From IMG/VR virus record IMGVR_UViG_2724679538_000008, positions 1 to 22,421 of that record: 22,421 nt of DNA. One strand, given 5' to 3'. Positions 7,711 to 15,012 of this stretch are shown one piece after another (position 1 is the first letter of the stretch; the number at the start of each line of letters is the position of its first letter). This DNA is from a virus (lineage: Duplodnaviria; Heunggongvirae; Uroviricota; Caudoviricetes). The position numbers and the translations under genes are program-made. Below the pieces are notes generated by a model that did not search any database, was not told where the DNA came from, and saw nothing but the letters and a program-made list of their open reading frames with translations.

Positions 7711-7941
7711 ATGAACCCAGCAATCAAAACAGCGATCAATATAGTTGGTTCACAAAAGAAACTGGGCGATGCCTGCGAAGTTTCACAGCAGGCCGTCTAT
7801 AAGTGGCTTCACAACAAAGCAAAGGTATCCCCTGAACATGTCGGCAGCATTGTTACGGCTACTGGTGGAGTTGTGAAGGCATACCAGATTCGCCCGGATC
7901 TTCCGAAGTTGTTTCCACACACCGAAAAGAACGCAGCTTAA
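7711..7941 (+). CDS. cro: Cro-like HTH regulator (YdaS/Cro family)
   Basis: 76-aa protein with HTH 'KKLGDACEVSQQAVYKWLHNKAKVS'. SD 'GGAGG' upstream. Divergent from cI across the operator region. Confidence 0.7.
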   Translation: MNPAIKTAINIVGSQKKLGDACEVSQQAVYKWLHNKAKVSPEHVGSIVTATGGVVKAYQIRPDLPKLFPHTEKNAA

Positions 7942-7953
7942 ATTTCCATTTCA

Positions 7954-7999
7954 CGCTCTTTAACAATAAGCAATCAACTTAACAGACTGATTAACAGTC
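7954..7999 (+). promoter_or_regulatory. nutR-like site: boxA followed by a boxB-like hairpin
   Basis: 'CGCTCTTTAACAA' (7954-7966) matches the boxA consensus. It is followed 18 nt later by GACTG-attaa-CAGTC (7985-7999), a 5-bp stem with a 5-nt loop like lambda boxB. Located just downstream of cro, as nutR is in lambda. Confidence 0.5.
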
Positions 8000-8022
8000 A
8001 ATTCAAACTAAAGGAATCAATT

Positions 8023-10896: not shown

Positions 10897-10922
10897 AATA
10901 GCACTCATTTGTGAGTGCTATT
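10897..10922. terminator. Perfect 11-bp-stem hairpin between convergent genes (putative bidirectional terminator)
   Basis: AATAGCACTCA-tttg-TGAGTGCTATT, placed between the stops of the 84-aa (+) and 472-aa (-) ORFs. Flanks are A/T-rich on both sides. Confidence 0.5.
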
Positions 10923-10930
10923 GAAATTTA

Positions 10931-12349
10931 TTAGAAAATAATGTTTGCTATATCCGAGATAGCATTTAAAGAACCTCTGTGGTCACTTCCTGTTTTAGGT
11001 AAAATATAGGAATATCGAGGGTCTTCATTATATGTTAACTTCCAGTGTTTTCCATCGCTTGACGCACTGAAACCTAAGTCCTTTAAATTTCTTTGTGTTG
11101 CGCTATCCATGCTTCTGTAACCTGTTAAAGTCCTTTTAAGTAATTGGCGGCGACTCTCGGTTTCTTTATTGTATTCATTATTGGCAATTAGGGATGATAA
11201 GATATGGTAGCTTCTACCAAATTCATTTTTATTTTTTATGGCAGTTTTTAGTGCGTCAATAATTATATTTTTGATTTCTCCATCAAAAAAGTCAGTCTCT
11301 TCACCAGCATTAAGCACAATGCTTCCTTGGGCTGAAGCTTGTGATTGAAGAGTGCGTACTCTGTGCTCTAAAGAGGAGATCTTATGCTTAAGATCTTCTA
11401 TTTGGTCATCTTTCGCAACATTATCGGCTTCGTAAAGCGCCATCAGTTCGCGTGTGTATTCTCCTCTTTCTTTGAGTGAGTTAATAGAGTCTTTCGTTTT
11501 TCTGGTTTGTATCTCACTCCATCCACTATCTGAGACAGGAGCCATTGTAGTCGTAGCTCTTACAACATCATCAAATAACTCATCTTCAAATTCTTTTGCG
11601 GTTTTCTCACCACGGCGATAAAAACTGATATTTTGACCCCGTGGCCAATAGATACCAACAGCACCAGCATAGGCATTTTTAGCATTTGTCTCATTTTTTA
11701 GCTTAATAGAAAATAGTCTATTGCTAGGCTCAATTAATACATGTGCTAATCCGCATACCTTTCTTGCAAGGCGTTCTGGGATGATATTGTGAGCATGTTC
11801 ATTAAAAAAATACTTGGAGCTAACGTATATTATTGGTAGTCTGTTGTCAGTTTCACCATTTATAACTTTAGCTGCTATATTTAAATGTTCATCAGTATCA
11901 TCTAAGGAATGAGGTTCGACTGACACCTTGAAAATATCATCAAGACCACCAGAAAATTTATCAATCAATCTCATAACAACTAATGGTTTCTTAGGTTGCG
12001 GGGCTAGATAAGCTGCATCTTGGCTTACAACGCTAGATTCCACCTGAATCCACATGGTATCAGTTTTGAGATTTTTATTAATTGAAATATCTGTTACCCA
12101 TTTGTGTGGCTCAGATATTTTCGAATACCTAAAACAGCCTAAACTAGTATCTTTGTTTTTATAAGTTATTATATCAATTCTTTCATTTTTAGACTCTATG
12201 AAGTACTCCTCGCTTTTATAATCACATACTAATTGTGCTGGAATAAAAGTTGTATGTGGTGAGTCGTTTACCCAAGAAAAACATTCATTAAAGATCTCAG
12301 CTAGAGATGTGGAGTTTGAAACATAAAAACCAGTTGAGAAATATTTCAT
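10931..12349 (-). CDS. Large orphan protein (472 aa), AT-rich, no recognisable domain
   Basis: Long uninterrupted ORF on the strand opposite to the early-right operon. Visibly lower GC than the flanking lambda genes. Central predicted coiled-coil ('ELMALYEADNVAKDDQIEDLKHKISSLEHRVRTLQSQ'). No Walker A or other motif I can name. Confidence 0.7.
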   Translation of the reverse strand: MKYFSTGFYVSNSTSLAEIFNECFSWVNDSPHTTFIPAQLVCDYKSEEYFIESKNERIDIITYKNKDTSLGCFRYSKISEPHKWVTDISINKNLKTDTMWIQVESSVVSQDAAYLAPQPKKPLVVMRLIDKFSGGLDDIFKVSVEPHSLDDTDEHLNIAAKVINGETDNRLPIIYVSSKYFFNEHAHNIIPERLARKVCGLAHVLIEPSNRLFSIKLKNETNAKNAYAGAVGIYWPRGQNISFYRRGEKTAKEFEDELFDDVVRATTTMAPVSDSGWSEIQTRKTKDSINSLKERGEYTRELMALYEADNVAKDDQIEDLKHKISSLEHRVRTLQSQASAQGSIVLNAGEETDFFDGEIKNIIIDALKTAIKNKNEFGRSYHILSSLIANNEYNKETESRRQLLKRTLTGYRSMDSATQRNLKDLGFSASSDGKHWKLTYNEDPRYSYILPKTGSDHRGSLNAISDIANIIF

Positions 12350-12463
12350 GAAATTTCCTTATTAAAAATGAGATTAATCTCATTGGCTATGATAATTGTT
12401 ACCCTCCTTTGGATCTAGTGTTCATTTGACATAAGAACCTATTGATTCATCATAATCAACTCG

Positions 12464-12588
12464 CCATAATCATGTCATCGGAGCCTGAACAACTCCGGTG
12501 ACTTCTGCGCTAAACGGGGACGTTTATGCGCACACACAATCCAAACTCTCATCTCCATTCACAGATGCAGAAATGCACCTACGATTTT
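12464..12588 (+). repeat. Direct repeat, copy 1 (~125 bp; partner at 14397-14520)
   Basis: Aligns by eye with 14397-14520 with about 8 mismatches. It includes a 48-bp identical core 'GAACAACTCCGGTGACTTCTGCGCTAAACGGGGACGTTTATGCGCACA' (12486-12533 = 14420-14467). Confidence 0.8.
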
Positions 12589-13008
12589 TACATTCGGTGT
12601 TTTACTTCGACAGCCAGAATTGGGAGTCTCTATTCGTCTGGCGGCTAAAGGTGATATGGAAATCGTTATGTTTTGGCCTGAGGTAGTTGTAACTGTTGTA
12701 GCAGCTATGGCTGTGATCATCATGGTGTCCATTTACTGGGGTTGACGACATGATTTATCCGGCGCTATATTCTGTGCGTTGCCGCAAAATCGGCACACGG
12801 GATTGGCGTCCCGGGATACTACTCAACGCATACCGCGTTAAGCGGTTTTTTTGTGCGCTAAGCACGGCTATGCCCAAATTATGGTGGGCTGTGTGAGGGC
12901 TTCTTCGGAAGCGCCGGGTTTGAGTAGCCGGTTACGCCAACCTTACACAGTTCACCACCAGTCGATTGGCGTCGTTGGTGGTGATGGTTAACCTGATGAG
13001 GTGATACT

Positions 13009-13617
13009 ATGACTACTCAATTAGCATTCCACAAAACGACGTTTACCCCGATTTGCCACAATAACAGAATTTGGCTTACTGCCACTGAAGTTGGTTTAGC
13101 ACTGGAATATGCGGACGATAAAGCAGTTCAGCGTATTTACTCTCGGCACTCAGATGAATTCACAGATATGATGACAAGGGTGGTCAAAGTGACCACCCCT
13201 CGTGGAATGCAGGAGTCTCGAGTATTTAGCCTTCGCGGAGCCCATTTGATCGCCATGTTTGCTCGTACTCCTGTGGCCAAAGAATTCCGCCGCTGGGTTC
13301 TGGATATTCTCGATCGAGAAGTTCAACAATCCCCAATCACAAAACAATTCACTGATAACGAACTTTGCACACTCGCCTGGTTATGGCGAGCAAGTGATAC
13401 GATGTTAACCGCCTGCCAGAACGTTACGCCCCTTCTTCAGGTCGCAGAGCATCGCGAAGCAGGTAGATTCACTTCAATCGAACAAGAATATCCTCGGATA
13501 CTCAACAGGGCGCGAGAAATCCTTGCCAGAGAAACGGCGCATGTAAAATTCCAACCGTGGCAGGATGATAAGTGGAGTCGTGTGTTACCATATTTCCGTC
13601 AGAATCTGTTGCAATAA
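13009..13617 (+). CDS. Bro-N domain antirepressor-like protein
   Basis: 202-aa ORF; the N-terminal half 'IWLTATEVGLALEYADDKAVQRIYSRHSDEF...ESRVFSLRGAHLIAMFARTPVAKEFRRWVLDILDRE' follows the Bro-N pattern (W..A.DV...L.Y ... E..V.SL.G...I..AR.P.AK.FR.WV). Has its own upstream promoter-like element. Confidence 0.6.
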   Translation: MTTQLAFHKTTFTPICHNNRIWLTATEVGLALEYADDKAVQRIYSRHSDEFTDMMTRVVKVTTPRGMQESRVFSLRGAHLIAMFARTPVAKEFRRWVLDILDREVQQSPITKQFTDNELCTLAWLWRASDTMLTACQNVTPLLQVAEHREAGRFTSIEQEYPRILNRAREILARETAHVKFQPWQDDKWSRVLPYFRQNLLQ

Positions 13618-13852
13618 AGTCACTCGTTAGAAATACTGCCAGCATTCTGCGATGACGGAAGTGCTGGCATTTTTTTTGGTAATGTGCGAGTCCATTTCAT
13701 AAAATACGGGTACTGGAACTGGACGATATAATCTAAAAGATACCATTATCAGTAGCATTAAAATCGCTATGTGCCGATACGGATATAAATTATATTGATT
13801 GTTCACATACCTTATTGGATATTACTGAGGGGTGTTTATATAAGGTGTAACG

Positions 13853-14362
13853 ATGATGTGGAACTTTGACAGTGCCGACTTAAGTGCAATAGCAGCAGGC
13901 ATTTCTGCGTTTGGCACATTAGCCGCAGCGGGGTCGGCGCTTGCAAGTTGGTACACGTCAAAAAAAGCGCTGCAGCTACAAAATAGAGTTTACCTTTATG
14001 AGTCTTTAAAGGCTTGCGCTGAGAGAGCCAATTCATTAGCTAAAGATAAGCGCGGATCTGAATGGAGCGTTAATGATGCAGCGGATATCATCAGGTGCCT
14101 AGTACGGGCGATGGAGATCATCAAGCAGGATAGCCAGCAGAAAGAAGGTAATCAGGCATTAATGTTGAAACAGTACTTTGTTAATCTGCTAATAATGGAA
14201 CTGTACGAGGAAGTTCATAACGGTGATGCGGCTGATTCTGTTTTTAAAAGTACGGAACCTACACAAGTACTTGATAACTTATGGAGCAAATGGCAGGAGG
14301 CTATAGCTTTTTTTGATATTTGGAATTACCCAGTTGCGACTGAGGAAGACTTGGCAGACTAA
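13853..14362 (+). CDS. Hypothetical protein with N-terminal hydrophobic (membrane-anchor-like) segment
   Basis: 169-aa ORF; residues ~10-35 'LSAIAAGISAFGTLAAAGSALASWY' are hydrophobic; the remainder is acidic and helical. No family recognised. Lies inside the repeat-flanked cassette. Confidence 0.5.
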   Translation: MMWNFDSADLSAIAAGISAFGTLAAAGSALASWYTSKKALQLQNRVYLYESLKACAERANSLAKDKRGSEWSVNDAADIIRCLVRAMEIIKQDSQQKEGNQALMLKQYFVNLLIMELYEEVHNGDAADSVFKSTEPTQVLDNLWSKWQEAIAFFDIWNYPVATEEDLAD

Positions 14363-14396
14363 TTTTCAGCACATTTGATTTCCAATAATCAACCAG

Positions 14397-14520
14397 CCAT
14401 AATCATGCCATTGGAGCTTGAACAACTCCGGTGACTTCTGCGCTAAACGGGGACGTTTATGCGCACATACAATCCAAACTCTCTTCTCCCTTCACAGATG
14501 CAGAGATGCACCTGCGATTT
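14397..14520 (+). repeat. Direct repeat, copy 2 (immediately upstream of ninB)
   Basis: See copy 1. This copy is contiguous with the ninB RBS (GGAGG at 14546-14550) and GTG start. Confidence 0.8.
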
Positions 14521-14556
14521 TTTGCATCCAGCGTTTGACCTCTGCGGAGGTGAAGC

Positions 14557-15012
14557 GTGAACCTCCCACAAGACGGCATCAAATTGCATCGCGGTAACTT
14601 CACCGCTATCGGTCAACAGATCCAGCCTTATCTGGAGGACGGCAAATGCTTTCGCATGGTGCTTAAACCGTGGCGTGAGAAACGCAGTCTTTCCCAGAAT
14701 GCACTCAGCCACATGTGGTACAGCGAAATCAGTGAATACCTCATCAGCAGGGGTAAAACGTTCACCACTCCAGCTTGGGTAAAAGATGCTCTCAAACACA
14801 CATATCTCGGTTATGAAACCAAAGACCTGGTTGATGTCGTAACCGGTGATATCACCACTATCCAGTCGTTACGCCATACCTCCGATCTTGATACCGGAGA
14901 GATGTATGTCTTCCTGTGTAAGGTTGAAGCCTGGGCGATGAATATTGGCTGCCACCTGACTATTCCGCAGAGCTGCGAGTTCCAGCTGCTGCGCGACAAG
15001 CAGGAGGCGTAA
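14557..15012 (+). CDS. ninB: NinB recombination protein
   Basis: 151-aa protein with a GTG start preceded by GGAGG. Occupies the lambda ninB position at the head of the nin region and is stop/start-coupled to the genes that follow. The NinB call is from remembered similarity to the lambda protein plus position; no literal motif is quoted. Confidence 0.8.

Follow-up and report, generated by a model that had tools for sequence, protein, structure and literature searches.

A duplicated, putative promoter-leader region borders an antirepressor cassette and precedes ybcN in a lambdoid Escherichia coli prophage

The sequence analysed here, IMG/VR virus record IMGVR_UViG_2724679538_000008 (positions 1 to 22,421; hereafter the window, meaning this whole stretch of 22,421 nt), is a lambdoid Escherichia coli prophage of the phage 82/DLP12 type, with its best matches being NZ_CM142689.1 (99.2 % over positions 10900-14600) and phage PhiR26_1. 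Its genes follow the order O, P, ren, a small open reading frame (ORF), an opposite-strand gene for a 471-amino acid protein, a repeat and cassette region, and ybcN-ninE-ybcO-rusA-ylcG-Q. Within the repeat and cassette region, two copies of a direct repeat, termed R, enclose a small hydrophobic ORF, an IsrK-like small RNA (sRNA), a C4 antisense RNA, an antirepressor gene (ant) and a gene for a 169-amino acid protein, while ybcN directly follows the second copy (Table 1). R corresponds to the orf33 region of phage 82 and the ylcH region of the K-12 prophage DLP12, and both its role upstream of ybcN and its part in the movement of the cassette are considered below.

Table 1. Features of the R, cassette and ybcN region, with window coordinates and the basis of each assignment
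Feature	Position	Strand	Basis
471-amino acid cargo gene, left flank of copy 1	10931-12349	-	Weak PADLOC HEC-07 match; gene also in a cassette-less relative
R copy 1: partial ylcH promoter-leader duplicate, right end fused to antirepressor cassette	12442-12589	+	Repeat search, mismatch count, allele comparison
Promoter-like TTGATT-17-CATAAT, copy 1	12442-12470	+	Promoter search; start of homology
Hairpin 1, copy 1: 10-bp stem, loop CCUGAACAA	12474-12502	+	Per-allele folding, covariance model
Hairpin 2, copy 1: GGGA loop with Shine-Dalgarno; ATG 12526 in 3' arm	12507-12531	+	Folding, covariance model
ylcH-derived ORF of copy 1, 40 codons	12526-12648	+	ORF list
Small hydrophobic ORF, 29 amino acids, phrog_4612 (function not assigned)	12656-12745	+	E = 1.7e-16
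Promoter-like TTGACG-18-TATATT directly before isrK	12742-12771	+	Promoter search; placed like PisrK in Gifsy-1 (PMC4825925)
IsrK-like Hfq-binding sRNA and terminator	12780-12852	+	RF01394, 58.7 bits (gathering 50), model positions 1-77
C4 antisense RNA	12877-12962	+	RF01695, 74.8 bits (gathering 45), model positions 1-87
Antirepressor (ant), Bro-N and P22_AR_C	13009-13617	+	Domain search
Terminator-like hairpin GCCAGCA...TGCTGGC, then T8, after ant	13638-13677	+	Sequence reading
169-amino acid protein, one N-terminal hydrophobic segment, phrog_1779	13853-14362	+	Variable 3' cargo, other DNA in relatives
R copy 2: native ylcH promoter-leader-upstream ORF unit before ybcN	14375-14560	+	Phage 82 annotation, homologous loci
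Promoter-like TTGATT-17-CATAAT, copy 2	14375-14403	+	Putative in phage 82 record; promoter search; conservation
Hairpin 1, copy 2	14407-14435	+	Folding, covariation
Hairpin 2, copy 2: loop Shine-Dalgarno, ylcH ATG 14459 in stem	14440-14464	+	Folding, covariation
ylcH/orf33, 33 codons and stop; TGA overlaps ybcN GTG (14557)	14459-14560	+	Phage 82 record, K-12 coding sequence, allele alignment
Candidate hairpin 3 inside ylcH, GAUGCAG...UUGCAUC	14497-14528	+	Folding; overlaps weak terminator-like site 14499-14516 and T run
Candidate hairpin 4, ACCUC-UGCG-GAGGU, pairs ybcN Shine-Dalgarno	14538-14551	+	91.9 % paired, one compensatory pair
ybcN (orf151), diverged Orf/NinB-family recombination mediator	14557-15012	+	NF007281, literature

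A repeat search of the window delimited R as a gap-free direct repeat of 148 nt (12442-12589 and 14375-14522; start-to-start spacing 1933 nt), the two copies of which share 91 % identity (90.5 %; 14 mismatches by direct count). An earlier note on this DNA had described a repeat of about 125 bp with about eight mismatches and a 48-bp identical core. The repeat is real and extends about 23 nt further to the left, with exactly eight mismatches counted in the narrower interval beginning at 12464 and ending at 12588, while the longest identical run measures 49 nt (12486-12534). The additional 23 nt carry the -35 and -10 promoter-like hexamers. Beyond the edges of the repeat, identity drops to the background of 25-30 % on both sides in ungapped comparison (30 % directly left of 12442), a one-base shift to the right of 12589 recovers 47 % at most, and a faint likeness of copy 1 to copy 2 runs on to about 12620. 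No other direct repeat longer than 32 nt was found in the 22.4-kb window.

The same sequence, at 93-96 % identity, occurs in phage 82 (X92588; Mahdi et al. 1996) and in the ylcH-ybcN region of DLP12 in K-12, both of which have the gene order ybcN-ninE-ybcO-rusA-ylcG-Q in common with the window but contain R in a single copy, where the window has two. The phage 82 record annotates putative -35 and -10 hexamers, an inverted repeat ('possible regulator-binding site'), a ribosome-binding site, orf33 and orf151, while duplication, a cassette, RNA covariation or conservation of R across genera are absent from the annotations of the phage 82 and DLP12 records and from the results of literature searches. 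R could be distinguished in 2,818/5,426 complete E. coli genomes. Among 131 copies from viral contigs, 115 lie directly before ybcN, four before other genes and eleven before the cassette, with one cut by the contig end. Two of the four other genes were scanned and represent canonical NinB (PF05772), and the remaining two are close relatives of these, so that ybcN or NinB genes follow R in 119/131 copies. In loci fetched with the YbcN protein, a sample unbiased for R, the repeat precedes ybcN homologues from Escherichia, Enterobacter, Citrobacter, Huaxiibacter, Siccibacter and Phytobacter, and is absent from the ybcN loci of Pantoea and Rosenbergiella. The proposal that copy 2 is the native upstream region of ninB, running into its ribosome-binding site, accords with this distribution across viral copies and six genera. 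The downstream gene is itself more accurately called ybcN (NF007281): its product scores 22.5 bits against Pfam NinB, just under the threshold of 23.8, and its membership of the Orf/NinB family, as a highly diverged member, has been shown by experiment (PMC4118853). A covariance-model scan for hidden copies of R found none upstream of ant modules that lack R, in the ybcN loci of Pantoea and Rosenbergiella, or in lambda. E. coli-type ybcN genes (87-100 % identity) were also observed in assemblies attributed to Halomonas, Alkalicoccobacillus and an 'Oxalobacter' metagenome-assembled genome (MAG; loci L219, L220 and L218), on contigs that are very short and of low coverage; contamination or mis-binning is the probable cause.

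Loci fetched with the antirepressor protein showed four arrangements. In the first, R is followed by the small-ORF region, isrK, C4, ant, 320-1,280 nt of variable DNA, a second R and ybcN. The second arrangement is the same without the upstream R (L155, L156, L173-176 and L185), the third comprises tandem ant modules with R between them (L159 and L160), and in the fourth diverged R alleles precede ybcN. R was thus found at the cassette borders of relatives, a recurrence on which the earlier note had made its interpretation depend. Its expectation that different cassettes would sit between copies of the same repeat holds for the 3' cargo, while the two-copy loci all begin with the small-ORF/isrK/C4/ant module. 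The tandem loci (L159 1260-4581; L160 1277-6505) each include one diverged and one window-type ant module, with a full R between the two and a second R and ybcN thereafter. In locus L152 (about 560-780) an apparent IS3-family transposase 3' end and terminal repeat stand in place of copy 1, and an IS3 transposase is also listed at the position of copy 1 in one of the matching E. coli genomes (match H76). Copy 1 meets the small-ORF region at an identical junction in all relatives, and about 300/5,426 complete E. coli genomes, in several backgrounds, have this junction; because it is the same throughout, a single origin of the R-module junction is indicated. The impression that copy 1 is truncated in many relatives, gained from BLAST matches starting at positions 11-65, was rejected, as these sequences are full-length R with other promoter and hairpin 1 alleles.

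A query was constructed to represent the sequence that recombination of copy 1 with copy 2 should yield. An uninterrupted match to the whole query was obtained in 19 complete E. coli genomes, and a match to 80 % or more of it in 21. These 21 genomes carry the left flank of the window, a single R and ybcN, without the cassette. In one cassette-less locus (L221, TUM9868), the left and right flanks each share about 98 % identity with the window, and its single R combines copy-1 variants on the left with copy-2 variants on the right, the switch falling just 3' of the identical core. Six left-flank contexts were found both occupied and empty among the loci in hand. In each pair, the copy of R on the cassette side is the same as the R of the empty site from the promoter-like hexamers across hairpins 1 and 2 and into the first codons of ylcH; beyond this its sequence becomes that of the cassette type, with the switch at about position 95, 115 or 140 of R in different lineages. 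Since the switch points within R vary, homologous recombination within R is indicated. The earlier suggestion that copy 1 is a recombination junction is borne out by the empty sites in 21 genomes, the chimeric single R, the six flank types and the differing switch points.

R further forms the constant right-hand boundary of a cargo slot between ren and ybcN whose contents are hypervariable. Similarity between phages starts sharply at TTGA in 78 distinct copies of R, and the sequences that adjoin R on the left, at TTGATT, include more than 30 unrelated ones. With unrelated segments bordering it, variable breakpoints within it and matched occupied and empty sites in otherwise similar backgrounds, R probably serves lambdoid phages as a mosaic joint for homologous exchange. 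The swapping of modules at conserved sequence is ordinary for these phages, and at the lambdoid mosaic joints described by De Paepe et al. (2014; PMC3945230) short conserved stretches border the exchanged segments, with breakpoints inside them, through relaxed homologous recombination between phage and prophage. R resembles these joints in being a conserved stretch with internal breakpoints, but differs from them in being duplicated within one genome, and a defined cassette can therefore loop out or in. In the slot of phage 4A7, a 150-nt antirepressor remnant (L002 2501-2654), 77 % identical to window positions 13306-13464, lies beside an esterase gene, which suggests that an ant module was once present there and has been partly replaced.

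The left end of R is formed by the promoter-like hexamers. Both TTGA and (C/G)ATAAT are invariant or nearly so in 79 alleles, with a fixed, gap-free spacing of 17 bp, and the hexamer spacing (TTGA-N19-(C/G)ATAAT) is kept even in alleles with an unrelated spacer. On the strength of this conservation, the hexamers of R would form an active sigma-70-type promoter. An operator at the palindrome TTGAT-N8-ATCAA, which covers the -35 hexamer and part of the spacer, was considered and rejected: its spacing is unlike that of FNR sites (N4), and the ATCAA half is missing in the Siccibacter, Enterobacter MAG and Phytobacter alleles, which retain TTGA and ATAAT.

Downstream of the hexamers, R is predicted to form two RNA hairpins. 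Hairpin 1 begins 4 nt past the -10 hexamer and has a stem of 8-13 bp, with CCUGAACAA or a close variant as its loop. Hairpin 2 has a stem of 10-12 bp closing a GGGA loop, with GGGGA serving as the putative ylcH Shine-Dalgarno sequence and the AUG or GUG start codon of ylcH located 5-7 nt past it, within the 3' arm. The same two hairpins were obtained in each of 41 distinct leaders folded singly, and pairing is kept through seven stem sequences of hairpin 2 and about ten of hairpin 1. In an unfitted MAFFT alignment of the 79 alleles, double changes were observed in 14/32 pairs, compared to 4.6 ± 1.7 after shuffling (0/500 shuffles reached 14) and seven to ten pairs when the partners were slid. 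In an alignment made with a two-hairpin covariance model, and thereby biased towards the structure, double changes occurred in 16/20 pairs, compared to 6.0 ± 1.6 shuffled and three to five slid. The alleles that covary were obtained through ybcN or ant, not through R itself. RNAalifold gave a poor consensus on the MAFFT alignment, in which stems of unlike sequence were misaligned, and was replaced by folding of individual alleles, a hand-drawn structure and the covariance-model alignment. The model scored copy 1 at 100.4 bits (match 12472-12538) and copy 2 at 93.7 bits. These compensatory substitutions argue that both hairpins are under selection as RNA, and hairpin 2 would be expected to limit initiation at ylcH. 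The inverted repeat that is read as a DNA regulator site in X92588 would, on the evidence of covariation, be an RNA hairpin. The suggestion of the earlier note that the identical core is functional fits these data, as it holds the 3' arm of hairpin 1, the whole of hairpin 2 and the ylcH start. No Rfam 15 family matched R at the gathering thresholds, and matches at E ≤ 10 were unrelated and far under threshold. A pairing partner for the hairpin 1 loop was likewise sought elsewhere in the window: there are no exact complements of CCTGAACAA, and nine sites with one mismatch, compared to 6.2 expected by chance.

The ORF that starts in hairpin 2 had been judged probably not protein-coding, a view which is not upheld by the wider set of alleles. 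In DLP12 of K-12 it corresponds to a 33-codon coding sequence overlapping ybcN, known as ylcH. RNA of ylcH has been detected in K-12, where it is listed among the DLP12 genes in a transcriptome table (PMC8910356). The frame is intact, at 31-33 codons, in 78/79 distinct alleles over six genera, and indels occur in multiples of three. As had been noted before, the ORF ends on the GTG of the downstream gene, and an ATGA or GTGA overlap with the start of the orf/ninB gene is found in all alleles, which include three different orf/ninB alleles, two of them canonical NinB. The core of the predicted peptide, QMQKCTCDFLH, is invariant save in a few alleles, with that of Phytobacter being the most divergent. 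The N-terminal third shows mostly amino acid-changing variation, while the core is invariant in both protein and nucleotides, so that constraint on the peptide and on the RNA are inseparable there. The central twelve codons of ylcH (SQMQKCTCDFLH; window 14442-14470, alignment A2) are nucleotide-invariant across genera, including third positions, with the flanking codons free to vary, and peptide and RNA constraint appear to be superimposed on them. No YlcH family is found in Pfam, NCBIfam or PHROG, and literature searches yielded no publications on the function of ylcH or containing the core sequence.

Two further candidate hairpins lie at the 3' end of the unit. The sequence of hairpin 3, inside ylcH, is nearly invariant, which makes covariation uninformative in this case. 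In the alignment, hairpin 4 spans 4-5 bp in E. coli; the Citrobacter and Enterobacter alleles have 7 bp, with wobble changes among them. Given that the ylcH stop overlaps the ybcN start and that the ybcN ribosome-binding site is paired with the 3' end of ylcH, ybcN is most likely coupled to ylcH in translation; ylcH would be translated, and its translation would open hairpin 4.

Taken together, it is likely that R is the control region of the ybcN operon and also the sequence within which the cassette is exchanged or lost by homologous recombination. R would represent the 5' control region of the ybcN (orf/ninB)-ninE-ybcO-rusA-ylcG-Q operon, made up of a sigma-70-type promoter, an RNA leader and ylcH. 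The small-ORF/IsrK/C4/antirepressor module carries a partial R at its own left end, and the cassette between two copies of R could then move among phage backgrounds, or be lost, via general homologous recombination performed by host RecA or by phage Red or Orf-type functions. Under this mechanism, the left part of copy 1 (promoter, both hairpins and first ylcH codons) would derive from the resident background and the right part from the cassette. For the first two-copy genome, the most economical origin is an illegitimate or unequal exchange, which would have joined the 3' end of ylcH to DNA upstream of an ant module resident in the slot of another phage.

A number of points weigh against this interpretation. 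The promoter, the transcription start and the translation of ylcH are all proposed on the basis of conservation. In DLP12, rusA, which lies downstream of ybcN, is reported to be poorly expressed and to need insertions that supply a promoter (PMC4118853), and the R promoter may therefore be weak, repressed or blocked by the leader there. The predicted transcription start falls downstream of the outer pairs of hairpin 1, so that this hairpin may matter in read-through RNA from pR rather than in RNA that starts at the promoter of R. As the viral contigs (L004-L122) were picked by means of a 25-mer located in hairpin 2, conservation of that stretch in this set holds by construction. Copy 1 is not maintained in every case, its hairpins being degraded in some alleles (L148 and L162 types). 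Almost all ylcH differences within E. coli alter the amino acid, and the central codons do not vary even at synonymous sites; what is constrained in ylcH may therefore be the frame and the RNA rather than the peptide. Finally, the chimeric pattern is compatible with crossovers, a looped-out circle or loss through recombination between the two copies of R, and gain and loss of the cassette are indistinguishable in it.

The earlier note had described a two-gene cassette. Both genes are present, but the small ORF, the IsrK-like sRNA and the C4 antisense RNA had been missed. The protein recognised there as Bro-N-type carries both Bro-N and P22_AR_C domains, while the presumed membrane-anchored protein has one hydrophobic N-terminal segment in its translation and belongs to phrog_1779, a family to which no function has been assigned. 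The small ORF (12656-12745) encodes the peptide MEIVMFWPEVVVTVVAAMAVIIMVSIYWG, with diverged alleles encoding a hydrophobic peptide of other sequence and one allele group having a premature stop at codon 7, and its stop codon overlaps the -35 hexamer of the putative isrK promoter. In the immI region of phages P1 and P7, a C4 antisense RNA precedes icd and ant, and blocks ant translation. The window is similar in having a C4-family RNA directly before an antirepressor gene on the same strand, but differs in that the antirepressor is of the Bro-N/P22AR type, IsrK lies upstream and the host phage is lambdoid. As in the isrK-orf45-anrP-isrJ locus of Gifsy-1 in Salmonella (Hershko-Shalev et al. 2016; PMC4825925), the window has an IsrK-family sRNA with its own promoter-like site and terminator, and downstream of it a short interval and an antirepressor of the Bro-N type; unlike in Gifsy-1, the interval between isrK and ant scores as C4, and the module occupies the ren-ybcN slot, not a position beside antQ. 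No match to isrJ was found in the window at the Rfam threshold. The IsrK-family sRNA and the C4 RNA, which adjoin each other before ant, thus combine the layouts of Gifsy-1 and P1 immI, with the C4 match at the position of 'orf45' in Gifsy-1.

Copy 1 could, in this setting, be a co-opted, functional promoter-leader which drives the small ORF and feeds into isrK, C4 and ant. Its promoter hexamers, both hairpins and the ylcH start are kept in at least six allelic forms, its covariance-model score exceeds that of copy 2, and its ylcH-derived ORF stops 8 nt before the AAGGTGA-ATG of the small ORF, a coupling-like arrangement in front of a recognised phage ORF family (phrog_4612). Such a role is possible but doubtful, given that the copy-1 ORF is of unstable length in relatives (14, 40, 46 or 53 codons), the small ORF is prematurely stopped in one allele group, isrK has its own promoter (PMC4825925; a promoter-like site is present in the window), ant modules exist without an upstream R (L155, L156, L173-176 and L185) and some copy-1 alleles have decayed hairpins. 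The intact left half of copy 1 is also simply explained by recent import from functional single-copy R alleles.

An extension of this idea, which must be regarded as speculative and on present evidence unlikely, is that the ylcH leader forms an undescribed cis-regulatory unit, conserved in at least six enterobacterial genera and gating synthesis of Orf/NinB and possibly of the whole nin-Q operon. Hairpin 1, the loop of which is invariant, would let a protein or RNA factor dock, hairpin 2 would act as a lock on the ylcH start codon and the invariant core QMQKCTCDFLH, as peptide or as RNA, would serve as a sensor; the unit would also have been co-opted for the antirepressor cassette. If true, expression of the antirepressor would be tied to the same signal as that of the Orf/NinB mediator.

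It is improbable that the hairpins act instead on transcription elongation, whether through nut/boxB-like or put-like antitermination or through an attenuator in ylcH, as the counterpart of tR2. The lambda boxB loops are CCUGAAAAA and CCUGAAGAA, to which the hairpin 1 loop CCUGAACAA can be likened; R is a two-hairpin RNA just past a putative promoter, a weak terminator-like site lies within ylcH, and tR2 of lambda sits precisely between ren and ninB. The lambda ren-tR2-ninB interval has the same map position as R, after ren and directly before the Orf/NinB gene, but in its 73 nt it holds an intrinsic terminator and the ninB ribosome-binding site, without promoter-like hexamers, an upstream ORF or R-like hairpins. 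The nutR of the prophage itself consists of boxA CGCTCTTTA and, as its likely boxB, GACUG-AUUAA-CAGUC, from which hairpin 1 differs in both stem and loop. Hairpin 1 is not preceded by a boxA, and loop variants such as AUUGAGCCC violate the GNRNA pattern; the identification of hairpin 1 as boxB or nut was accordingly rejected. R is joined to many immunity regions, which makes N-specific recognition unlikely. The constant distance of Shine-Dalgarno and start codon in all seven stem variants of hairpin 2 fits translation, and the T run of ylcH belongs to the 3' arm of a longer conserved hairpin, with no further U tract after it.

Site-specific recombination, with R as the target of, for example, a YbcK-type serine recombinase and the cassette mobile in the sense of an integron or shufflon, is very improbable. 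Recombinase genes do occur in the cargo slot of some relatives (YbcK-type in DLP12 and phage 4A7) and R contains inverted repeats, but no recombinase is encoded in or beside the slot of the window. The crossover points differ among lineages (about 95, 115 and 140), with allele changes also further left, where a site-specific system would use one fixed point, and stems that covary beneath conserved loops are the signature of an RNA rather than of a DNA site. Least plausible of all is a local tandem duplication or transposition footprint that arose in this lineage and plays no part in exchange among phages. Direct repeats around an insert do recall target-site duplications, but a repeat of 148 nt with 90.5 % identity is much longer and more diverged than any of these, and transposase and terminal inverted repeats are absent. 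Copies 1 and 2 fall into different R allele classes in their left halves and were hence not copied from each other in this lineage, and the junction of R with the cassette recurs in about 300/5,426 complete E. coli genomes, in several backgrounds.

To the left of copy 1, the product of the 471-amino acid gene (10931-12349) matches PADLOC HEC-07 weakly (E = 1e-9) and has no family in Pfam or NCBIfam, while the gene in the equivalent position in PhiR26_1 is annotated as PD-lambda-1. The ren-ybcN slot looks like a hot spot for defence or accessory genes. Further upstream, the nutR region (window 7940-8010, after cro) contains boxA CGCTCTTTA followed by GACTG-ATTAA-CAGTC, likely boxB, and its boxB specificity differs from that of lambda.

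The locus provides an unusually clean natural record of cargo swapping in lambdoid phages, with one cassette in six backgrounds and matching empty sites, and this series favours the exchange of modules through homology, as opposed to random illegitimate joining, at the ren-ybcN hot spot. The novelty is modest: R is recognised as an uncharacterised unit of putative promoter, structured leader and upstream ORF that is conserved across genera, and the occupied and empty sites pin recombination to it. The leader of R is in addition a candidate RNA motif that is absent from Rfam. The ylcH gene of K-12 is hereby placed in a conserved unit before an Orf/NinB gene, which offers a testable model for the control of prophage recombination genes.

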